Part shown: positions 1 to 57,689 of the stretch, piece by piece
How positions within the stretch are numbered: position 1 is the stretch's first letter
Layout of the letters: every line of letters starts with the position of its first letter
Assembly (NCBI RefSeq): GCF_021729155.1
Contig: NZ_JAJQYA010000002.1
Location: forward strand, 191,348-255,347
Reading direction: 5' to 3'
DNA length: 64,000 nucleotides
Source: Membranihabitans marinus
GTDB taxonomy: Bacteria; Bacteroidota; Bacteroidia; Chitinophagales; Saprospiraceae
Program-made: the position numbers and the translations under genes
Notes under the pieces: model-generated
Seen by the model: the letters and a program-made list of their open reading frames with translations, nothing else
Database searches by the model: none
What the model was told of the DNA's origin: nothing

Positions 1-360
1 ATCGAATTACGTTGCAGTCACGCCTCGGCATGGGATCTTTCTTAGCCGAGAGGCGGAGCTCTCGGTTCCCTCGCCAAATACCGATTTACGGGCTCACCCA
101 TCCACGACACTGTGGTCGTGGCTCCTTCACCTAGGCTCACCCACCCGGAGCACAGCGGCTAAAAACCTATCGATTTATATTTCAGTCACGCCGGAGCACA
201 GTGGCTCCGGTTCCCTCGCCATTGATCCATTTAGGATCAATGGTGCTGCGCACTTCGCTCGGTCACACCCGATGGATGGATCCCTCGGTTCCTTCATCCA
301 ATTGATATTTAATCAATTGGGTTGCTCTTCGAGCAACTACATTCGGTCATGTTCTGTCAT
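1..360. repeat. GC-rich structured repeat element, truncated by the window start. Order of parts: CACGCC(T/G)(C/G)GGC-type units, hairpin CCGGAGC-ACAGTG-GCTCCGG, TTCCCTCGCC, hairpin CCATTGATCC/GGATCAATGG, hairpin CCAATTGAT/ATCAATTGG, hairpin GTTGCTC-TTCG-GAGCAAC, then CTACATTCGGTCAT.
   Basis: Direct reading of the sequence. The same hairpin1/TTCCCTC/hairpin/hairpin/TTCATTCGGTCAT architecture recurs at 50185-50280 and 42240-42400, and partly at 12520-12680. GC content is much higher than in the flanking AT-rich intergenic DNA. Confidence 0.6.
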
Positions 361-528
361 GCTCGGTCATTAAAAAAAGTATTTGGTAATACAGTTATTT
401 GAATGCCATATCTTTATCCTGCAGTGGTCATCGGAATTGATTATCTCTATTAAATCAAGATTTTTTACTATGCAAACGCTTTAAATTTTAAGTTAATATA
501 AAATCCAAAGTCCATGATTTAGAATAAA

Positions 529-4190: not shown

Positions 4191-5484
4191 ATTATTTAGT
4201 ATATCGATTCTATTTTTATCGTTTTTTATATTGTTGTTTCTAAAAGTTCCCGTAGCTTTTAGTATTGGTATATCCACCACCTTGACATTATTGTTGAGCA
4301 TTCCTTTTTTGCCAGCTGTTACGACCATTAGTCAGCGAATGATGACAGGTTTGGATTCATTTGCTTTATTGGCTATTCCATTCTTTGTATTAGCAGGGGA
4401 AATAATGAACCAAGGAGGTATTGCAAGGCGATTAATTAATTTTGCAAAATCTCTTGTCGGAGCTCTGCCAGGAGGTTTGTCATTTGTCAATATTTTAGCG
4501 GCCATGCTTTTTGGAGCAATATCTGGTTCATCGGTTGCAGCGGCCTCTGCTATTGGAGGGACTATGACTGAAACCATGGTCAAAGAGGGGTATCCTCGAC
4601 CATATACGGCGGCCATAAATATAACAGCTTCAACTACTGGATTGATTATTCCACCCAGTAACGTCCTTATCGTTTTTGCATTGGCCAGTGGGGGGACAGC
4701 ATCAGTAGCTGCCTTATTTTTGGCTGGATATATTCCAGGTATTCTTACCGGATTGGCATTGATGATTACCGCTTCTTATTTTGCGCGTAAAATGGACTTG
4801 CCAAGAGGGGACAGATCTTCATTGACCACATTGTGGAAAGACTTTAAAGGTGCATTCCTAAGTTTATTGATGTTGTTCGTCGTTGTTGGCGGAATTGTAG
4901 CTGGTGTATTTACTGCCACTGAGGCTGCTGCTATTGCAGTACTCTATGCTGCAGGTTTGGCTTTGGCATATAAAGAAGTCAAAATAAAAGATTTCAAAAA
5001 GATATTCCTAGATAGTGCAAAAACCAATGCTATCGTTACTTTCTTAATCGGTACCTCTATGGCCATGTCTTGGTTGTTTTCTTTTGAAAGCTTCCCACAG
5101 TATATCACCAATCTGGTACTGGGTAATATAAGTAACCCATTTGTCATTTTCTTGATTATCAACTTAACGCTCTTAGTGGTGGGTACCTTTATGGATATTA
5201 CCCCTGCGGTGTTAATCTTTACGCCTATATTTTTGCCCTTAGTTACTGAGTTGGGAATGGACCCCGTACACTTTGGGATTATTATGGTCCTCAATCTATG
5301 TATTGGGATATGTACACCTCCAGTGGGAACCTTGCTCTTTGTCGGTAGTGGGGTCGCCCATGTAAAGGTAACCGAGGTGATTAAGCCATTGCTTCCATTT
5401 TTATTGACTATGGTCATTGTACTATTTATTATAACTTATGTTCCAGCGTTGGTCATGTGGCTACCTGGGTTATTTGGATACTAA
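4180..5484 (+). CDS. dctM: TRAP transporter large permease (DctM family)
   Basis: About 434 aa, polytopic, with glycine-rich TM segments typical of DctM. Start chosen at MNPELF...; the ORF track extends to 4159. Confidence 0.85.
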   Translation: MNPELFSISILFLSFFILLFLKVPVAFSIGISTTLTLLLSIPFLPAVTTISQRMMTGLDSFALLAIPFFVLAGEIMNQGGIARRLINFAKSLVGALPGGLSFVNILAAMLFGAISGSSVAAASAIGGTMTETMVKEGYPRPYTAAINITASTTGLIIPPSNVLIVFALASGGTASVAALFLAGYIPGILTGLALMITASYFARKMDLPRGDRSSLTTLWKDFKGAFLSLLMLFVVVGGIVAGVFTATEAAAIAVLYAAGLALAYKEVKIKDFKKIFLDSAKTNAIVTFLIGTSMAMSWLFSFESFPQYITNLVLGNISNPFVIFLIINLTLLVVGTFMDITPAVLIFTPIFLPLVTELGMDPVHFGIIMVLNLCIGICTPPVGTLLFVGSGVAHVKVTEVIKPLLPFLLTMVIVLFIITYVPALVMWLPGLFGY

Positions 5485-8419: not shown

Positions 8420-9460
8420 GTGGAGAAAAAGAAAAACGGACAAGATTTTACCATCGTAGATATAGCCAATGAATTGAATATATCTGCGGCCACTGTATCT
8501 CGTGCTCTAAACGATCATAGTGATATCAGTGAGGCTACCAAGGAAAAGGTGCGTAAAATGGCTCAAAAAATGGGTTATCGACGCAACAAAATAGCCTCTG
8601 GATTGAGAAGTAAGAAGTCATATACCGTGGGTTTTATTATCCCGAGTTTGTCTTCATATTTTCAGACTGAATTGTTGACCGTTATTCAAAACAAAATGCA
8701 TGATTACGGGTACAATGTCATTATTTGTCAATCCAATGATTCCTTTGAGCTGGAACGTCAATTGGTGAATACATTGTATTCTTATCGAGTAGATGCTTTG
8801 TTTACTTCACTTTCACTTTATACAGAAGATTACAGTCATTTTCAACCCTTTATTGACAGGGGGATTCCTGTGGTATTCTATGATAGGGTTCCCAAAGTTG
8901 ATTTGCCGGCATATGTTATAATAGGTGATGATGTCAGAGGGGGATATTTGGCTGCCAATCACTTGATTGAGACCGGTTGCAAAACCTTGGCCTTTATCAA
9001 TGGCCCAACTTCCTGTAAGATTTATCACGATAGACTACAAGGATTTCAACAAGCGCTGAAAAATAACAATATCATCTACGATGAAAACTATGTTTTTTCC
9101 CATCCATTGAATAATAATTTGACTTGGGATGATTGTAGACATTTGTTTAACGACTTTGATATACCTCCAGATGGGATATTGGCTGCCAACGATACCACAG
9201 CCATTACCGTTCTTCAATATGCTAAAGAAAATCAAATTGATGTACCCAGTCAATTAAAAATTATTGGGTATTCCAATGATCCTCGTTCATCTATTGTTAC
9301 ACCTTCTATATCTACCATTGATCAGAGAATCCCCGAAATGGCTGATGCTGTTGTACAAGCATTTATTGAATTGGTTGTACAAGGTAAAAATGTAACTACG
9401 GAGGGAAGTTTGACCAAAAAAGTGGTTGATATCAGTTTGGTTCGCAGAATGTCGACATAG
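8420..9460 (+). CDS. LacI-family transcriptional regulator, probably the hexuronate locus regulator. GTG start.
   Basis: N-terminal HTH (TIVDIANELNISAATVSRALN) followed by a periplasmic-binding-protein-like sugar-binding domain. Confidence 0.85.
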   Translation: MEKKKNGQDFTIVDIANELNISAATVSRALNDHSDISEATKEKVRKMAQKMGYRRNKIASGLRSKKSYTVGFIIPSLSSYFQTELLTVIQNKMHDYGYNVIICQSNDSFELERQLVNTLYSYRVDALFTSLSLYTEDYSHFQPFIDRGIPVVFYDRVPKVDLPAYVIIGDDVRGGYLAANHLIETGCKTLAFINGPTSCKIYHDRLQGFQQALKNNNIIYDENYVFSHPLNNNLTWDDCRHLFNDFDIPPDGILAANDTTAITVLQYAKENQIDVPSQLKIIGYSNDPRSSIVTPSISTIDQRIPEMADAVVQAFIELVVQGKNVTTEGSLTKKVVDISLVRRMST

Positions 9461-12253: not shown

Positions 12254-12519
12254 AAATTATTTGATCTATTCAGTGAGTTGAATATCTAATTAAAATTATA
12301 TGAATTAATATACGATATTAATTTAGTATAAGTATATTTAGTTGATTATTTTTTTGTTGTTTTTTATTTAAATGGTTTTGCAAAGTGTTATTTATTCCGG
12401 ATTTTAAATTATACCAAATGAGTTTATAATTGTCGGTAATCTTTCGATTTCTGTAGAGTACGAGCGAATGAAGTAGTCTGAAAGACTACTAAATGCCTAT
12501 TTTAAGACATTTGGATCTT

Positions 12520-12680
12520 GGATCTTCATTCGGTCGTATACTGCATTTGGTCATTATAGCTTGAGCCTGATTTTAGGAGACGCAGGGCCAACCCACACGA
12601 CATGGAGGTGAAGGAGTGAAGTGCGCAGCACCGTAGAGACGCAATGCCTTGCGTCTTCACTCATTCAATCAGACTTGGTC
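12520..12680. repeat. Partial copy of the GC-rich structured repeat family, in inverted orientation. Contains CTTCATTCGGTCGT...GGTCATT and the hairpin AGACGCAA-GGC-ATTGCGTCT.
   Basis: GGTGCTGCGCACTTC, as the reverse complement of 12612-12626, matches 237-251. CCTTCACCT blocks and the CATTCGGTC motif are shared with the copy at 1-360. Confidence 0.45.
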
Positions 12681-12723
12681 TCAATGAATATATTTTTATA
12701 ACCTGGTTTTACGATAAGTACAA

Positions 12724-29422: not shown

Positions 29423-29559
29423 TTAGCCAAGAGGATTTCGATTAGCCATTATTCAAAGACGATAGGGAATAATGAAAAGGATATTGTCCAATGGTTTTGT
29501 CACACTGTTTGCCCCAAAAATCAATTATTAAAAATTCATTTGGTATAATACGAATTCCA

Positions 29560-29745
29560 TTACCCATTACCCATTAATCATTAATAATTAACCGTTAACC
29601 ATTAACCATTAATCATTGATAATTAACCATTGATAATTAACCATTGATAATTGACCATTGATAATTGACCATTGATAATTAACCATTAACCATTAACCAT
29701 TAATAATTAACCATTAATAATTGACCATTCTCCATTCTCGGATTA
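29560..29745. repeat. Heptad/14-mer microsatellite, (CCATTAA)n with variants CCATTAC, TCATTAA, CCATTGATAATTAA and CCATTGATAATTGA
   Basis: Read directly. About 25 heptad units lie between the terminator and the sulfatase 3' end. The reverse-complement motif ATGGTTAAT recurs at 48935-48980, 49325-49360 and 49835-49870. Confidence 0.8.
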
Positions 29746-38339: not shown

Positions 38340-39026
38340 TTATTGTGGGTTGACAACTGCTGTGTTCCTCGTTATAGATTCGATAACACCGTCCTTCATA
38401 TAGGCGATGCGATCACATTTTTTAGCAAAAACTTCATCATGGGTAACCACGACAATGGTTTGGTTGAAGTCTTGTTGAAGTCTTTTAAACAATAGAAAAA
38501 CCTGGTGACTATTTTCTGTATCGAGATTACCAGTGGGTTCATCGGCCAATATCAGCATAGGATCATTGATTAGGGCTCTTGCAATGGCTACTCGTTGTTG
38601 TTCACCACCTGACAATTCGTTGGGGAAATGTTCTAGTCTTTCACTCAATCCCATGAAATGTAACAATGATTCTGCTTTTTTATAGAAATCTATTTTCGAT
38701 TGTTTTCCTTCAATCATGGCTGGTATGGCAACATTTTCCTTAGCCGTAAATTCATCCAATAAATGGTGGAATTGAAAAATAAAACCCAAGTGTTGGTTTC
38801 TAAATTGTGCCAATTCTTTTTCCGATTTATTAAATATATTTTGACCCTGAAAAATAATTTCACCAGAATCGGGCTGGTCGAGACTGCCCAATATTTGTAA
38901 AAATGTACTCTTGCCGGCACCTGATTTTCCTTGAATAGCAAGGATTTCACCCTCGTTGATTTCAAGATTTACGCCCTTTAATACAGGCAATTTGCCGTAA
39001 CTTTTATGTATGTTTTTTGCTATCAC
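38340..39026 (-). CDS. ABC transporter ATP-binding protein (LolD/FtsE-like)
   Basis: Walker [10 protein letters not shown], signature [15 protein letters not shown], Walker [12 protein letters not shown]. 228 aa. Confidence 0.85.
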
Positions 39027-42132: not shown

Positions 42133-42239
42133 TATTTAATGGGTTTATAATCAATGATTGTTCTGTAGATTGTCATTGCCTAAGTTTTTTTAACCGCAAT
42201 TATTATATCTCATTTAGATAATTTCATCCAACTCTTAAT

Positions 42240-42400
42240 ACAACGGATTGGGTGGTTCGTATCACTTTTGGTCTCACTCAAAACGCGTGAGATTCGGTTC
42301 CCGCCCTTCGACTCGCCCAAGGAGAGGCATTCAATGGACATTTAGCCCATTGGATTGCTCAATAGAGCAACTTCATTCTGTCATTTTTCAAACTTTTTTA
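42240..42400. repeat. Copy of the GC-rich multi-hairpin intergenic element. Parts in order: hairpin CTCAC..GTGAG, TTCGGTTCCCGCC, hairpin CAATGG..CCATTG, hairpin TTGCTC-AATA-GAGCAA, then CTTCATTCTGTCAT.
   Basis: Shares the CGGTTCCC(T/G)C block and the 3' hairpin+CTTCATTC(G/T)GTCAT module with 1-360 and 50185-50280. Stem sequences differ but pairing is maintained. Confidence 0.55.
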
Positions 42401-42757
42401 TCATTGCGAAAATGTATTTCGTATTAAATCAAGACAATCTCCTAATGATTTCATTTTTTATTCTAAAAATTAGTAACTTATGCAGAAGAAAAAGTGGTTT
42501 AGGAGGGTATGAAGAGTATTCATCACTGAAATAATTTGATTCTATGGTTAAAAAGATTTGCTAACATGATAGATGGTATCTTCCTTCCGCGATTAATGAT
42601 TCTAATAAACATGATATTCCTAAGATTTGCTCATATTTAAACTTTTGCCTGTTCCAATATAATTCATGTAGTATTAGTCGATCTTATCATAGATCAATGG
42701 ACAGGATGGTGACATGATTTAGATTTGTACTATTGTAAAACAGAAAAGTGTAAATAG

Positions 42758-43636
42758 ATGAAAACTAAAAGAATTGAAATGGTCGTCAGTCCTAGATCGC
42801 CTCATTATGTTGGAGATGGATTTAGAGTGCAAACTTTTATTCCCATTTCTAATCGTTTAGATATGAAAAGAATGGATCCTTTTATTTTAATGGATTACAA
42901 TTCTCCTCATTATTTTCCACCTTCAGATCGACCTCGTGGTGTGGGTGTACATCCACATCGTGGATTTGAGACGGTAACCATTGCTTATCAGGGCAGTGTA
43001 GCTCACCATGACAGCAGTGGTGGTGGAGGCATTATCAAAGAAGGTGATGTTCAGTGGATGACGGCTGGATCAGGTGTATTGCATAAAGAATATCACGAAA
43101 CCAATTTCAGTAAGGCTGGAGGTTATTTTCAAATGGTTCAATTATGGGTCAATCTTCCTGCCAAGGACAAGATGACTACGCCTAAGTACCAATCCCTGGT
43201 TCACGAAAATATACCTGTTGTAACCTTGGACGATGAAGGCGGTGTCATTGAGGTAATTGCTGGTGAGTACAATGGTGTAGCTGGTGCTGCTTCGACGTTT
43301 TCACCGGTCAATTTAATGAATGCCAAATTGAATACCGGAGGTAAAGGTCGATTTTCTTTCCCTTCGCATTACAATACTGCTGTAGTTGTGGTATCTGGTA
43401 GTGTTTTGATCAATGGCGATGAAGTCGTCAATAGTGATCACTTTGTATTATTTGAAAACCAAGGGGAGGACTTTACGGTAGAAGCGAAGGAGGAGTCTAT
43501 AGTATTGGTATTAAGTGGAGAGCCATTTAACGAACCAATAGCGGCACAGGGACCCTTTGTGATGAATACCAGAGAGCAATTGATGGAAGCTATGCAGGAT
43601 TACAATTTGGGCCGATTTGGCTACTTAGAGGATTAA
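42758..43636 (+). CDS. Pirin-family protein (bicupin)
   Basis: HPHRGFETVT...H..H metal-binding cupin motif. 292 aa. Confidence 0.85.
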   Translation: MKTKRIEMVVSPRSPHYVGDGFRVQTFIPISNRLDMKRMDPFILMDYNSPHYFPPSDRPRGVGVHPHRGFETVTIAYQGSVAHHDSSGGGGIIKEGDVQWMTAGSGVLHKEYHETNFSKAGGYFQMVQLWVNLPAKDKMTTPKYQSLVHENIPVVTLDDEGGVIEVIAGEYNGVAGAASTFSPVNLMNAKLNTGGKGRFSFPSHYNTAVVVVSGSVLINGDEVVNSDHFVLFENQGEDFTVEAKEESIVLVLSGEPFNEPIAAQGPFVMNTREQLMEAMQDYNLGRFGYLED

Positions 43637-48773: not shown

Positions 48774-48929
48774 AATTTTGATATTGAATGTTAAATCGAA
48801 TTTAAGATTAAGTAATGTTTCAATCTAATGGAATAGATATCCTTAAATATATGAATAATTATTTATTTTTAAATAATATGCAGGTAATAAATTTGGCTTT
48901 GTTGATAAAAGGCGGAACGAATAATTGAA

Positions 48930-50285
48930 GGGGAGTGGCTAATTATTAATGGTTAATGGTTAATGGTCAATGGTCAATGATGTGACTGAGAATAGTTGTC
49001 CTTTGTGCAACTTCATTCGTTCAATCACGACAATTCCACTCCTTTGGAGGGGTGTCAGATTACTGACGGGGTGGTTTGGAAATTCTGTAGGAAATATTAA
49101 AAATTAATTTTTTTCAATCGAACCAAACCGTCAGTTTTCATAAATACTAGCCATGCCCACTGTGGTATGACGAGATTACATAAGATTCTCTGTTGATTTA
49201 CGGTCCAATCACGCCGGAGCTAGACTTCCTGTTGATATGTGGTGTAATCACGCCGGAGTGAGATTCTCTGTTGATTTACGGTGCAATCACGCCGGAGCAT
49301 GAACGAATGAAATTGAGGAGTGTTGGTTAATTATTAATGGACAATGGTTAATTGTTAATTGTCATTCACGACAATTCCCCTCCTATGGAGGCATGTCAGT
49401 TTTCATAAATTCTAGTCAAGTCCACTTTGGCATGACGAGATTACATAAGATTCGCTGACGATTTAAGGGCAATCACGACTCGGCACATTGGAATTTTCCT
49501 TACAATTTTCGGTGCAATCACGCCGGAGCGAGATTTCACTGTTGATTTGTGGTGCAATCACGCCGGAGCGAGATTCTCTGTTGGTTTACGGTGCAATCAC
49601 GCCGGAGGTAGATTTCCTTACAATTTTCGGTGCAATCACGCCGGAGCGCAGTGGAATTTTCCTTACAATTTTCGGTGCAATCACGCCGGAGCGAGATTCT
49701 CTGTTGATTTACGGTCCAATCACGCCGGAGCTAGACTTCCTGTTGATACGTGGTGTAATCACGCCGGAGTGAGATTCTCTGTTGATTTACGGTGCAATCA
49801 CGCCGGAGCATGAACGAATGAAATTGAGGAGTGTTGGTTAATTATTAATGGACAATGGTTAATTGTTAATTGTCATTCACGACAATTCCCCTCCTATGGA
49901 GGCATGTCAGTTTTCATAAATTCTAGTCAAGTCCACTTTGGCATGACGAGATTACATAAGATTCGCTGACGATTTAAGGGCAATCACGACTCGGCACATT
50001 GGAATTTTCCTTACAATTTTCGGTACAATCACGCCGGAGCGAGATTCTCTGTTGGTTTACGGTGCAATCACGCCGGAGCTAGATTTCCTTACAATTTACG
50101 GTGCAATCACGCCGGAGGTAGATTTGCTTTCAATTTTCGGTGCAATCACGCCGGAGGTAGATTTGCTTTCAATTTTCGGTGCAATCACGCCGGAGCGCAG
50201 TGGCTCCGGTTCCCTCATCAAAGGTCGATTTACGACCTTTGGTTGCCCTAAAAGGCAACTTCATTCGGTCATCCACCAGACTTTT
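48930..50285. repeat. Higher-order tandem repeat block. About 16 copies of the 19-bp direct repeat GGTGCAATCACGCCGGAGC, spaced by 20-26 bp degenerate spacers and arranged in three sub-arrays. These are separated by about 190-bp modules that recur three times (period about 510 bp). Flanked by ATGGTTAAT heptads and ending in the family's terminal multi-hairpin element.
   Basis: Direct reading of the sequence. Sub-arrays lie at about 49203-49300, 49510-49808 and 50023-50200. The 190-bp modules lie at about 49060-49200, 49306-49495 and 49808-50005. The terminal element CCGGAGCGCAGTGGCTCCGG / CAAAGGTCG..CGACCTTTG / GGTTGCC..GGCAAC / TTCATTCGGTCAT spans 50186-50280. Confidence 0.85.
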
Positions 50286-51721
50286 GTGTTGATGTTGTCA
50301 GGGCCCATACGCTGAATCGCAGCTTGATAATTCGCCTGATTGACGGCTTGCTCAGATTCAGGATATAAATATCTCGCTGGATACCGACCTCCATTGAGAT
50401 TGTCAGGACCAGGTTTTAAATGCGGAATCCCAGTTCGACGTACATTAAACCATGCTTCGTGACCATTGCTGATTAAACTCAACCATTTCTGTGTCAGTAT
50501 TTTGTCTAAATGTTGCTCTCCATTTAATGCTATATTCTCCCTCGTAAAATAATCTTCTGGGATATCTGCTCCTAAATATTCAAAATGTGCCGTAATCCCA
50601 TTTACATAATACTCCTCTACATCCCCATCGATTAATCCACGTTCCACCGCTTCGGCTAAGGCAAATTGAAGCTCTGAATACAACATTATTTGACCGTCTA
50701 CACCATCGGCTACATCCCTGTATATAGATCCAAATAACGATATGTCGTTTAAATCAATTTGATTGGCCGCTATAGTCTCTCTGTTTTGACCATTGAGTAA
50801 TCCCTTGTATTGGGGATTCTTCGCACTGATGCTGGCCGCCGTTGGTTTGTATAAAATAGCCATTCGCGGATCATCCCATGAATGTAAAATCGAATCCACC
50901 GTTCGTGTCATCCGATGCTCTTGATATATACCCAGTCCAGCTTGGGACAACGGAAACTGATTCGGAGCCGCTCCGAGATAGGGAACAACGGCATTGTCCC
51001 CATTGCCACGCATAAGTGGAGCCGAATTAGCTAGATCCTCCAAAACACTGAAGTCGTCTATTTTATTGGAAATACGCAAGTAATATCTGACCTGCAATGC
51101 ATTGGCCAATCGAATCCATTGATCTAAATCATTGCCATACATCACATCACCTTGTATACGCGCCGTAGTTGAAGATAGGGTGCTGGCCGCCCGATTTAAA
51201 ATAGCCAATAACCCATTTTCATCATCTAAATATATATCTTCCTGCCTGTCGTATTGGGGTGTGGTGATACCTACACCTACCTTCAAGGCCTCAGTATAAG
51301 GTACATCACCCCATAAATCGGTAAGCTGTGAATAAATATAAGACTTTAAAATATCCCCAACCGCTTCATAGGCCTCATTGCTGGCTTCTACCGTCTGCAT
51401 GGATTCAATATCGGCCAATAAGTGGTAAAGTAAATTCCAATAAGTGGCATTACTTCCCAATTCGTATCGATCGATGCGCTCAAACTCTACACTTGCTGAA
51501 AATTGGGCTAAATAACTCGCTAACCTAAATCCTTGATTATAGGTGTTTTCATCCGCTAATACTGATATTACATTGGATAATAAAAACTGTGGATCGATGG
51601 ACTCCGACGCATTGGGATTTTGATTGATGCTTTCAAAATCACGACTGCAAGAAATTCCAATTCCAAAAAATATAATGAGAAATACAATATGGTTTTTCAT
51701 GGTATTAACTTTAAAATTCAC
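50261..51721 (-). CDS. SusD/RagB-family outer-membrane lipoprotein
   Basis: Lipobox (GISCSRD), TPR-like helical content, 486 aa. Lies immediately downstream of, and overlaps, a SusC-like gene. Confidence 0.85.
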   Translation of the reverse strand: MNFKVNTMKNHIVFLIIFFGIGISCSRDFESINQNPNASESIDPQFLLSNVISVLADENTYNQGFRLASYLAQFSASVEFERIDRYELGSNATYWNLLYHLLADIESMQTVEASNEAYEAVGDILKSYIYSQLTDLWGDVPYTEALKVGVGITTPQYDRQEDIYLDDENGLLAILNRAASTLSSTTARIQGDVMYGNDLDQWIRLANALQVRYYLRISNKIDDFSVLEDLANSAPLMRGNGDNAVVPYLGAAPNQFPLSQAGLGIYQEHRMTRTVDSILHSWDDPRMAILYKPTAASISAKNPQYKGLLNGQNRETIAANQIDLNDISLFGSIYRDVADGVDGQIMLYSELQFALAEAVERGLIDGDVEEYYVNGITAHFEYLGADIPEDYFTRENIALNGEQHLDKILTQKWLSLISNGHEAWFNVRRTGIPHLKPGPDNLNGGRYPARYLYPESEQAVNQANYQAAIQRMGPDNINTKVWWMTE

Positions 51722-56936: not shown

Positions 56937-57689
56937 TTATGATGAAATAAAATTGGATGAAAGATCGCTTGCTATCCCATTCCAGAATTCGACTTCTGCT
57001 AGCACTCCTGTCGATTTGTCCTTCATAAAGTCAGATTTTTCCTTGTACACCTTGAGGTATCCAGCATCCATATAGGCTATTTCATCTCCCATTAATAAGG
57101 CTTCTTTGAGGTCGTGGGTCACAAATAGCGAGGTAATGTGAAATTGCTGGGCCAAAGATTTAAACAATGACTGCATGTTTTGCCTAGTCATGCTATCCAA
57201 ACTCCCAAAAGGTTCGTCTAACAGTAGGAGGGAAGGATTGGTGATGATGGCTCGACCAAAAGATACGCGTTGGCGTTGCCCGCCTGATAACTGTTGCGGC
57301 ATTTTGTGCTTATGGCCGGACAACTCTAAACTGTTGATCATAGATTCCACTTGGTCTTGAATTTCATCTTTGGATTTCTTCTGTATCCGAAGGCCGAAAG
57401 CGATGTTTTCAAAGACGGTGAGATGTGGAAACAGCAAGTCTTCTTGATATAGATATACGATATTCCTCTTTGCTGCTGGTTGTTCGGTAATGGTTTTATT
57501 GTTTAGACGAATAGTTCCAGAATCTGGTTTGATTAGACCTGCGATAATCTTTAGCATTGTCGTTTTGCCACAACCGGATTTACCCAAAATGCTTAAAGTT
57601 CGATTGTTCTCTAAGGTGAGTTGAAGATTCTTGACGATGGAATCGCTGCCAAATGCTTTGTTTATATTTTCAATGTGTAAGAAACTCAT
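56937..57689 (-). CDS. ABC transporter ATP-binding protein (importer type)
   Basis: Walker A GKSGCGKTT, LSGGQRQRV signature, Walker B LLLDEPFGSLD. Confidence 0.85.
   Translation of the reverse strand: MSFLHIENINKAFGSDSIVKNLQLTLENNRTLSILGKSGCGKTTMLKIIAGLIKPDSGTIRLNNKTITEQPAAKRNIVYLYQEDLLFPHLTVFENIAFGLRIQKKSKDEIQDQVESMINSLELSGHKHKMPQQLSGGQRQRVSFGRAIITNPSLLLLDEPFGSLDSMTRQNMQSLFKSLAQQFHITSLFVTHDLKEALLMGDEIAYMDAGYLKVYKEKSDFMKDKSTGVLAEVEFWNGIASDLSSNFISS

Follow-up and report, generated by a model that had tools for sequence, protein, structure and literature searches.

What is the GC-rich, multi-hairpin sequence that stands at the left end of a 64,000-nt stretch of the Membranihabitans marinus genome (Saprospiraceae, Bacteroidota; hereafter the window) and returns elsewhere in it? 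A preliminary description had proposed a dispersed family with one linear architecture and compensatory stem changes, and had offered a structured small RNA, an attenuator or terminator, and a MITE- or REP-like mobile element as its function. The recurring element was found to be a repeat unit of ~60-90 nt (full range 60-120 nt), which carries three hairpins in fixed order and occurs between many genes. Each unit opens with CACCC or GTCACG, followed by hairpin A (hpA; stem of 5-8 bp, loop ACRGWG), GG, a TTCCYTCRY linker, hairpin B (hpB; 9-bp stem with an ATTTA loop, 23 nt in all as 9-5-9) and hairpin C (hpC; stem of 4-7 bp), and it closes with the terminus TTCRYTCRGTCAY. Loops, linkers and the terminal motif are kept across units, while the stems vary and yet remain nearly perfectly Watson-Crick paired. 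Every unit has RTCAY on its 5' side and GTCAY at its 3' end, and the motif TTCSSTCAY, present twice per unit, is reiterated at array ends.

According to a covariance model built on the linker, hpB, hpC and terminus, ~80 kb of M. marinus contains 14 full units at 52-74 bits, four of them in the window (52-74 bits) and ten more in 16 kb of its flanks, whereas the top score among 498 kb of unrelated control loci was 25.8 bits; no unit was found in 93 kb of loci from the nearest relatives. Pattern searches returned 9 matches to CTTCATTCGGTCAT with at most two mismatches (0.68 expected) and 18 to AATCACGCCGGAG (0.66 expected), and the short block TCGGTTCCCTC alone was not enriched (11 versus 9.9 expected). 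The proposed family with a single linear multi-hairpin architecture is borne out by the 14 units set against these controls, and all motifs quoted in the preliminary description were found at or near the positions it gave. The repeats occupy 3.5 of 73 kb. The features of the window are as follows, with covariance-model scores in bits:

1-22, plus strand: linking module (…ATCGAATTACGTTGCAGTCACG), cut by the window start; the same module stands at 8640-8670 and 9285-9312 of locus L001.
23-91, plus strand: truncated unit, broken inside the 3' arm of hpB (paralogous copy at L001 8662-8740), with a bulged hpA variant (23-53, CCTCGGC…GCCGAGAGG), linker TCGGTTCCCTCGC (62-74) and partial hpB (75-91; 5' arm CAAATACCG, loop ATTTA, CGG).
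103-160, plus strand: stand-alone hpA modules, CACGAC-ACTGTG-GTCGTG (103-120) and truncated CCGGAGC-ACAGCG-GCT (145-160).
187-266, plus strand: full unit U3 (73.1 bits; fold z = -5.5), with hpA CCGGAGC-ACAGTG-GCTCCGG (191-210), linker TTCCCTCGC, hpB CATTGATCC-ATTTA-GGATCAATG (220-242), short hpC GTGC-TGC-GCAC and terminus TTCGCTCGGTCAC.
267-350, plus strand: full unit U4, head to tail with U3 (68.4 bits; fold z = -4.0), with ACCC, hpA variant CCGATGGAT..ATCCCTCGG, linker TTCCTTCAT, hpB CCAATTGAT-ATTTA-ATCAATTGG (298-320), hpC GTTGCTC-TTCG-GAGCAAC and terminus TACATTCGGTCAT.
351-370, plus strand: two reiterated terminal decamers, GTTCTGTCAT and GCTCGGTCAT, an array-end module common to two other arrays.
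12454-12700, no strand assigned: degenerate mosaic cluster (partial matches of 25.7 and 18.8 bits), with a terminal motif in inverted orientation (12460-12473, minus strand), a separate hairpin TAGTCT-GAA-AGACTA, partial units at 12490-12535 (plus strand) and 12608-12692 (minus strand), and a GTAG-tagged REP-like hairpin (12633-12657).
42224-42265, plus strand: decayed unit (TTCATCCAA…ATTGGGTGGTTCGTATCAC), adjoining U7 upstream; weak match of 12.8 bits at 42219-42275.
42266-42384, plus strand: full unit U7 (52.1 bits), its linker interrupted by an insertion of 26 nt, with hpA TCTCAC-TCAAAACGC-GTGAGA (42272-42292), then TTCGGTTCCCGC, hpB TCAATGGAC-ATTTA-GCCCATTGG (42331-42353), hpC ATTGCTC-AATA-GAGCAAC and terminus TTCATTCTGTCAT.
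48915-50185, plus strand: cluster C6, upstream of U1, with a tract of TTAATGG heptamers (48946-48979), a terminus plus hpC in inverted orientation (48983-49024), long-TIR element halves (49028-49130, 49362-49402, 49873-49913), tandem units of 39 bp that derive from the 5' arm of hpA and the ATTTA loop (49183-49298, 49505-49809, 50006-50196), and a 511-bp near-identical duplication that joins 49183-49535 and 49694-50046 (2 mismatches in 353 nt).
50186-50272, plus strand: full unit U1 (73.9 bits; fold z = -5.9), with hpA CCGGAGC-GCAGTG-GCTCCGG (50190-50209), linker TTCCCTCAT, hpB CAAAGGTCG-ATTTA-CGACCTTTG (50219-50241), hpC GTTGCC-CTAAAA-GGCAAC and terminus TTCATTCGGTCAT.

The copy first placed at 1-360 does contain family units, but it is the right tail of a 1.2-kb cluster beginning ~810 nt before the window rather than a whole element. 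The copy expected at 42240-42400 was found as the intact unit U7, which is not truly solitary because a decayed unit precedes it. The segment 12520-12680, described as a partial inverted copy, does hold a partial unit, but within a degenerate mosaic that has partial units on both strands. All family copies lie between genes, as had been claimed, except that the terminus of U1 overlaps a gene end by 12 nt: these last 12 nt are the MTE-stop of a minus-strand SusD-like ORF, whose translation ends in …KVWW followed by MTE-stop; the final three codons of this ORF and its stop thus come from the unit.

Pairing is preserved in the stems despite their sequence variation. Over the whole structure, 96.4% of stem cells are paired and 13 of the 16 pairs show double changes; none of 500 shuffles matched the observed paired fraction or covariation score, and slid controls were 21-43% paired. 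In hpB, changes on both sides occur in eight of nine pairs with 97% of cells paired, and when closely related hpB variants are compared, 19 of their differences have a counterpart on the other arm and one is uncompensated. A census of 280 stem positions gave 271 Watson-Crick pairs, two G·T and five A·C, i.e., G·T is not enriched. Fold z-scores of the units are about -3 to -6 on both strands, the complementary strand folding about equally well. The compensatory changes described at the outset are confirmed by these values, and because pairing is kept through them, the structure must be under some constraint.

In every array, adjacent units follow one another head to tail, and the arrays form intergenic mosaics up to 1.4 kb long, distributed over seven intergenic regions in 80 kb. 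Besides units, the mosaics hold the 39-bp tandem derivative, heptamer tracts, a separate long-TIR element with ~45-nt terminal inverted repeats, and a GTAG-tagged REP-like hairpin (GTAG-AGACGCAA-nnnn-TTGCGTCT; six occurrences in the same clusters as the units). Hairpin modules are re-assorted, identical hpB sequences being found with different hpA or without hpA; truncated copies are common, decayed and tandemly amplified derivatives also occur, and the 511-bp duplication with its two mismatches is a sign of recent local amplification. In the six regions where both flanking genes were called, the gene pairs are tandem or convergent and none is a divergent promoter region. Relative to the neighbouring genes the arrays have no fixed orientation, some genes having the array on their coding strand and others on the opposite one. 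The plus strand of the window, which is G-rich, carries eleven of the 14 units, a bias that is not significant because units within one array are not independent. Unit junctions share only RTCAY and show no consistent duplicated flank, in a sample that holds no truly solitary copy. Two arrays open with a shared AT-rich module of ~70 nt, 29 nt of which are identical in both, and this leader closes, immediately ahead of the first hairpin, with a sequence that matches the -7 promoter box of Bacteroidota (TAGTTTTG); two of the three leader copies have a degenerate box, and a -33 element at the right spacing is lacking.

The spacer between a Crp-like and a pirin gene, which contains U7, is 625 nt long in M. 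marinus versus 78-120 nt in relatives, and the family is absent from the spacer of this conserved gene pair in the relatives. Together with the MTE-stop supplied to the SusD-like ORF, the longer spacer suggests that the units have the character of insertions and may be mobile. The arrays fill the longest intergenic regions here; they lead to 'hypothetical protein' calls that are spurious, and they can alter the ends of genes.

By sequence searches, the family appears to be specific to the M. marinus lineage, being found in none of the other genomes, metagenomes, phages and plasmids sampled. A pattern scan with GCAACTWCATTCNGTCAT of genome contigs, in a collection without M. marinus (one assembly of which is on record), gave 44 single matches, none with the unit architecture, and a metagenome scan gave 21 chance matches, mostly in one conserved gut-bacterial gene. 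The family was not found in two viral-sequence scans, blastn against plasmids and phages revealed no similarity, and we found no published description of repeats in the M. marinus genome or the genus.

The absence of an Rfam match, the lack of G·T enrichment, the truncated copies and the SusD stop supplied by a unit favour DNA-level repeats of the REP/BIME kind. We hold with moderate confidence that the family consists of lineage-specific, non-coding, hairpin-forming DNA repeats of this kind, i.e., non-autonomous selfish DNA that would be copied in trans. The evidence favours such repeats over a small RNA or terminator, and the family is most likely undescribed REP-like selfish DNA, not an RNA gene. 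Of the functions offered in the preliminary description, the REP-like, presumably mobile element is the one favoured.

The copying enzyme would be one that recognises single-stranded DNA hairpins, a Y1 HUH transposase of the RAYT/IS200 type being the most plausible, hypothetical partner. We propose that stems covary because only copies that still fold would be recognised and propagated, while the conserved loops, linkers and TTCGGTCAY end might provide sequence-specific contacts or cleavage sites. Insertion beside an RTCAY/GTCAY motif would re-create the target and lead to head-to-tail arrays; slippage and unequal recombination may then amplify pieces locally, yielding the 39-bp arrays and the 511-bp duplication. 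Where neighbouring genes are affected, for instance by hairpins at mRNA 3' ends or by the replaced stop codon, this would be secondary. Against this explanation, no transposase of any kind, including Y1_Tnp, was found within ~80 kb of M. marinus, and the partner is hypothetical because the search covered only these ~80 kb. In addition, arm-to-arm conversion inside palindromes could yield compensated changes without selection for recognition.

The M. marinus repeats resemble REP/BIME, whose palindromic stem-loops measure 20-40 bp, in consisting of short palindromic hairpins that are GC-rich, restricted to intergenic DNA and locally dense, in forming mosaic arrays with conserved linker motifs, in having sub-variants whose stem sequence varies while pairing is kept, and in occasionally overlapping gene ends. 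REP superfamilies carry an unpaired tag, GTAG or CGTC (TGTC and CCTC being variants of the latter), with a CCA-like tail in the CGTC types, and it is the GTAG class with which RAYTs are associated (PMC3733652). The hpB, with its 9-bp stem, 5-nt loop and preceding CCTC, has the dimensions of the CGTC-3/4 families (PMC3733652), but its tag and tail are not exactly CGTC…CCA: CCTC or CTTC plus RY comes before it, and GT or AT plus hpC comes after. A genuine GTAG-tagged hairpin, which conforms to the tag rule, co-occurs in the M. marinus clusters. Unlike a single REP, the unit joins three different hairpins in a set order. Its head-to-tail arrangement also speaks against the REP-like reading, since REPs normally form head-to-head or tail-to-tail dimers of alternating orientation, head-to-tail pairs being rare or negligible (PMC3733652). 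TnpA-Y1 subclass 2.6 occurs mostly in Bacteroidetes, and 'atypical secondary structures' flank its genes, with copies elsewhere in the genome (PMC6006769).

The family is a legible case of a hairpin repeat, with three hairpins in order, conserved loops and linkers, stems that diverge step by step with nearly all changes compensated, and head-to-tail growth. Small hairpin repeats are well studied in Proteobacteria; in Bacteroidota we know only of 'atypical secondary structures' noted near Y1 genes. If a cognate enzyme were found in the genome, the family would show directly which features of hairpin repeats are read by sequence and which by shape, and how repeat sub-variants diversify within one genome.

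Other known repeats share single traits with the unit. Like the IS200/IS605-derived PATEs, which move by single-stranded DNA transposition, it has subterminal hairpins, a defined strand and no terminal inverted repeats, and no consistent target duplication is seen at its junctions. RTCAY on the 5' side and a conserved 3' end are as expected of target-specific insertion but could equally reflect tandem duplication, and a G-rich-strand bias is possible (11 of 14 units, which are not independent). The unit ends share no one hairpin, however, and head-to-tail arrays are atypical of PATEs; we know of no cognate IS with ends matching the unit. Pneumococcal BOX (boxA-boxB(n)-boxC) is a modular intergenic repeat with a variable count of a short internal tandem module. 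The present family is likewise modular, predicted to fold stably, intergenic and restricted to one lineage, but BOX modules do not form a succession of hairpins with conserved loops and variable stems, and no sequence relationship is expected. In Nostoc, according to Elhai et al. in 2008, very small dispersed repeats reportedly come and go and nest in larger hairpin-rich intergenic repeats with secondary structure preserved, and heptamer tandem tracts are said to occur in the same genomes. M. marinus is alike in its small modules, the presence or absence of hpA being the sole behaviour of that type, but its repeats come from a different phylum and differ in sequence. The heptamer tracts and LTRR-like 39-mers could also suggest a cyanobacterial origin, which the SusC/SusD genes and the identity of the DNA as M. 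marinus rule out. The arrays are not CRISPR arrays: the 39-bp period is the whole repeated unit, and no unique spacers are present. Integron attC sites have a consensus of R''/R' core sites, RYYYAAC … GTTRRRY, bounding an imperfect palindrome; GTTGCTC/GAGCAAC is unlike GTTRRRY/RYYYAAC, and the units directly adjoin one another without intervening cassette ORFs.

It is rather unlikely that the repeats are non-mobile and are kept or spread by the host for a function at the DNA or mRNA level, for example as protein-binding iterons (the TTCSSTCAY decamers that lie between hairpins), supercoiling or insulator sites, or stabilisers of mRNA 3' ends, through local duplication and gene conversion instead of transposition. 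The paired and reiterated TTCSSTCAY motifs, the evident tandem amplification and the tandem or convergent setting of all six fully called regions would suit such a role, and in enterobacteria REP/BIME are documented to play comparable host roles (PMC2817692). Seven separate intergenic regions over 80 kb nevertheless need some dispersal mechanism, the family is absent from the relatives' loci, including the conserved gene pair, and the decayed and truncated copies argue against strong host selection.

We consider it improbable that the units are a structured RNA family, either as small RNAs or as hairpin RNAs released from a precursor array, whose stems covary under RNA-level selection and whose functional sites would be the single-stranded UUCCCUCAU, AUUUA and CUUCAUUCGGUCAU. 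Stems that vary in a compensated way next to conserved loops and linkers are what a functional RNA classically shows, folding is strong (z down to -5.9), and two arrays share the AT-rich leader with its -7 box match. However, that box is mostly degenerate and lacks a properly spaced -33 element; G·U pairs (2 in 280) are fewer than A·C; folding of the complementary strand is of similar strength; truncation, decay or re-assortment has affected many copies, and one enters coding sequence; and arrays run with some flanking genes and against others. The Rfam check suggested in the preliminary description gave no match for the units: Rfam 15 at the gathering threshold had none in the window, and at E<=1 nothing fell on the units, the only hit being a spurious MIR842 match to the long-TIR element. 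An intrinsic-terminator scan found 3 candidates versus 1.7 expected, none at unit ends, which speaks against intrinsic terminators, and no U-tract follows the hairpins. Given the lack of an Rfam match and of a U-tract, the near absence of G·U, folding of both strands, truncated and re-assorted arrays and their mixed strand relative to genes, the covariation more likely reflects constraint on DNA hairpins rather than on RNA, and the proposed small RNA, attenuator or terminator is not supported.

That the units are MITE-type elements, moved by transposition with terminal inverted repeats and target-site duplications, is very doubtful. Their size of 60-120 nt and their intergenic, multicopy, non-coding and lineage-restricted nature fit, and an element with ~45-nt terminal inverted repeats does occur in the same clusters. 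The unit itself, however, has no such repeats, the first 25 nt (flank included) scoring 3-5 against the reverse complement of the last 25 nt, no better than shuffles, and it is therefore not a classic MITE, so that this label from the preliminary description fails. No consistent duplicated flank occurs at unit junctions, head-to-tail chaining with a shared GTCAY junction is not predicted by such transposition, and there is no similarity to plasmid or phage sequence, where IS ends abound.

Least credible of all is that the arrays are transcription units (a leader with a -7 box and a precursor cut into three-hairpin RNAs) or programmable recognition modules of single-stranded DNA, in which a dedicated protein would be bound by the conserved loops and linkers while specificity would lie in the variable stems, although, if true, this would be a new kind of array-encoded RNA or single-stranded DNA system in Saprospiraceae, not selfish REP-like DNA.

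Derivation from tRNA or tmRNA was ruled out, as ARAGORN finds none. A coding repeat (39 bp being 13 codons, peptide IYGAITPE…) was rejected likewise: indels break the frame and there is no ORF of at least 100 aa. The called array ORFs of 63 and 87 aa have no homologues, the 87-aa 'protein' matching only itself. A role of the hpB stems as guides that match nearby DNA was rejected, the stem 9-mers not being systematically near their own units; this idea had been prompted by TCAATGGAC recurring upstream of the pirin gene. The heptamer TCAATGG/CCATTGA is ~5-fold over-represented throughout.

The repeat is a multi-copy, intergenic, modular hairpin repeat with conserved loops, linkers and terminus and with compensated stems, and every motif quoted in the preliminary description is present in the window sequence. 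Each three-hairpin unit, in its own orientation, consists of six parts:

Part 1: CACCC or GTCACG
Part 2: hairpin A, 5-8 bp stem, loop ACRGWG
Part 3: linker, GG-TTCCYTCRY
Part 4: hairpin B, 9 bp stem, loop ATTTA
Part 5: hairpin C, GTTGCYC-loop-GRGCAAC, or a 4-bp version
Part 6: terminus, TTCRYTCRGTCAY

The terminal motif CTTCATTCGGTCAT (up to two mismatches) occurs nine times versus 0.68 expected, and AATCACGCCGGAG occurs 18 times versus 0.66 expected; the short block TCGGTTCCCTC, which had also been singled out, is not enriched by itself.

A covariance model built from 12 units and spanning linker to terminus identified 14 distinct full units (52-74 bits) and a few degenerate partial matches in the window and its upstream (L001) and downstream (L067) flanking DNA. 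The full units in the window were matched at:

211-266, full unit
289-350, full unit
42322-42384, full unit
50210-50272, full unit

The top score was 25.8 bits in 498 kb of unrelated loci, which were chosen for a terminal 18-mer match or, for 21 metagenome loci, by a related hairpin-C-plus-terminus pattern, and in 93 kb of sequence from the closest relatives available no hit exceeded 12.4 bits. With the exception of the 42266 unit, whose linker contains an insertion, the units all fold into the predicted three hairpins, with z of -3.7 to -5.9. In the 12-unit alignment, standard pairs fill 96.4% of cells, compared with 64% after shuffling and 21-43% with slid partners; 13 of 16 pairs show changes on both sides, and for neither the paired fraction nor the covariation score did any of 500 shuffles attain the observed value. 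Inclusion of hairpin A gave a similar outcome. Hairpin B has at least 10 stem variants that form a stepwise network; the loop they enclose is invariably ATTTA, apart from a single ATTAA. Among variants differing at three or fewer positions, there are 19 compensated differences, with changes on both arms, and one uncompensated. Together, the hairpin B comparison and the covariation tests confirm the central claim of the preliminary description, compensatory stem changes with pairing kept; the family is real and statistically solid, and its structural interpretation was right.

Self-comparison showed that repeats total 3.5 kb of 73 kb, all intergenic save one pair of paralogous gene segments. 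The units occur in clusters in intergenic gaps:

L001 1-300, cluster
L001 1880-2450, cluster
Window 12454-12700, cluster
Window 42224-42384, cluster
Window 48915-50272, cluster
L067 4500-5360, cluster

The copy originally placed at 1-360 exists, but it is only the tail of a 1.2-kb cluster (L001 8480-9662). The family forms head-to-tail arrays and has undergone recent local amplification. Four of five GTCAC ends meet a unit that has hairpin A, and there the end runs directly into ACCC and that hairpin; what comes after a GTCAT end is a unit lacking hairpin A, a set of reiterated decamers (GTTCTGTCAT GCTCGGTCAT) or unique DNA. Modules are re-assorted between units: hairpin B CATTGATCC is combined with either CCGGAGC or ACGAC as hairpin A, or stands in a unit that has no hairpin A, and hairpin A CCGGAGC is found with three different hairpin B variants. 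Truncated and decayed copies are also included in the arrays.

We infer that the units are non-autonomous selfish DNA. Their propagation would depend on an enzyme recognising hairpins in single-stranded DNA, for which a RAYT/IS200-type Y1 HUH transposase is the most plausible candidate. Recognition would be limited to copies that fold, which would explain covarying stems next to unchanging loops, linkers and TTCGGTCAY end. If an element ending in GTCAY inserted next to RTCAY, a new target would form, and head-to-tail arrays would result. TnpA-Y1 subclass 2.4, from Cyanobacteria and Bacteroidetes, is associated with GT[AG]G REPs (PMC6006769). This association, the presence of a GTAG hairpin family in the same clusters and the location of 11 of the 14 units on the G-rich strand support Y1 HUH propagation by analogy only. 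Alternatively, arm-to-arm conversion in palindromes could supply the compensated changes free of selection.

The evidence favours a DNA-level repeat rather than an RNA gene. A structured RNA had been suggested, and diverged functional RNAs usually show abundant G·U pairing on one of the strands; the unit stems are almost perfectly Watson-Crick (271 Watson-Crick, 2 G·T, 5 A·C and 2 C·T pairs), the complementary strand folds about equally well, and an Rfam search returned no match to the units even at E<=1, which excludes the curated RNA families and speaks against that suggestion. The array strand is the coding strand for some neighbouring genes and the opposite strand for others. No U-tracts were found after the unit hairpins, so the terminator reading was not borne out either. 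The sole hint of transcription is an AT-rich leader module of ~70 nt, whose 29-nt core is identical in two arrays:

L001 8505-8578, leader
L067 5362-5430, minus strand, leader
L001 225-300, minus strand, degenerate leader

The leader ends in TAGTTTTG, a match to the Bacteroidota -7 box, directly before the first hairpin (GTCACGAC). However, this box is degenerate in other copies and a correctly spaced -33 element is absent; the module may be a promoter or merely another repeat module, and an RNA gene is not the most likely identity of the units.

Among known families, REP/BIME repeats are the closest kind, in line with the REP-like option raised earlier, although the units do not follow the alternating-orientation (HH/TT dimer) rule and carry only an ambiguous tag, CCTC preceding hairpin B. 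An IS200/IS605-derived (PATE-like) origin appears compatible. The MITE option fails since the unit has no terminal inverted repeats. CRISPR (arrays without unique spacers) and integron attC (unfitting core sites, no cassette ORFs) were excluded. Pneumococcal BOX and Nostoc small dispersed repeats are functional analogies. The exact hairpin-C-plus-terminus signature with the element architecture was absent from 185,579 species-representative genomes, a collection that evidently lacks M. marinus itself, as the search gave none of the three exact matches present in the window. The signature was likewise not found in a metagenome collection or in viral contigs, plasmids or phages; these scans used exact patterns or blastn and therefore could miss diverged relatives. 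Most likely, the unit belongs to the REP/BIME-like hairpin repeats, as a variant that is lineage-restricted and so far undescribed, and is neither an RNA gene nor a classic MITE.

The window derives from the chromosome of Membranihabitans marinus (Saprospiraceae, Bacteroidota), with ~38% G+C and positive GC skew throughout. One of its proteins occurs solely on contig BAABLJ010000019.1 (403 kb) of assembly GCA_039544285.1. Across the ~80 kb read (window, 9.3 kb upstream and 6.5 kb downstream), gene content is ordinary housekeeping and SusC/SusD-type, with no transposase genes. Two ABC-transporter ATPase genes share 141 nt of DNA-level similarity (38484-38625 versus 57159-57299); the two segments are coding paralogues and have no relation to the repeats described here. 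The 50186-50272 unit provides the last three codons and stop of a SusD-like gene (50261-51700, minus strand; …KVWW followed by MTE and stop), its terminal ATGACCGAATGA contributing the MTE and stop (50261-50272) in place of the gene's native stop codon. The Crp-like-to-pirin spacer holding the 42266 unit measures 625 nt, versus 78-120 nt in relatives keeping the gene pair. The pirin gene lies at 42758-43636; its protein is catalogued under M. marinus, and the next-best homologue is only 74% identical. A conserved motif, TATCATA(G/C)ATCAATGGAC(A/G)GG, precedes the pirin start codon by ~50-75 nt in M. marinus and in a distant Saprospiraceae MAG (locus L073):

Window 42683-42705, pirin upstream motif
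L073 9935-9957, pirin upstream motif

This is probably the native pirin operator or promoter, kept downstream of the inserted repeat.

The clusters also hold other repeats:

Window 49183-49298, 49505-49809 and 50006-50196, 39-bp tandem arrays
Window 12633-12657, GTAG-tagged hairpin
L001 8490-8514, GTAG-tagged hairpin
L067 ~4898-5234, minus strand (window-equivalent 65283-65643), GTAG-tagged hairpins
L001 9100-9245, complete MITE-like element
Window 49021-49130, 49362-49402 and 49873-49913, MITE-like halves

The 39-bp unit (ATTTACGGTGCAATCACGCCGGAGCGAGATTCTCTGTTG) combines the ATTTA loop with the 5' arm of hairpin A. Public annotation places 63- and 87-aa 'hypothetical proteins' (IYGAITPE… repeats) over these arrays, for which no homologues were found anywhere. 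A 511-bp tandem duplication (49183-49535 versus 49694-50046, 2 mismatches in 353 nt) within the cluster probably reflects recent amplification, with an assembly effect as the less likely cause. GTAG-tagged REP-like hairpins (GTAG-AGRCGCAA-nnnn-TTGCGYCT) number six, each carrying its GTAG on the plus strand of the window and three of them lying within a 112-bp tandem repeat just past the window end; GTAG REPs are a class linked to RAYT transposases. The MITE-like element (~145 nt) is bounded by terminal inverted repeats of ~45 nt (AATTCCCCTCCTTTGGAGGGGTGTCAG…CTGACGGGGTGG) with two small hairpins apiece; it gave a spurious MIR842 Rfam match (36 bits, under the gathering score). Finally, ~25 copies of the heptamer CCATTAA/TTAATGG form a tandem tract between convergent genes (29557-29729), shorter TTAATGG-type tracts adjoin the hairpin-unit arrays (window 48946-48979 and 49330-49365; L067 4505-4545), and TCAATGG and CCATTGA, which are similar to hairpin B stems, are ~5-fold over-represented over 80 kb.
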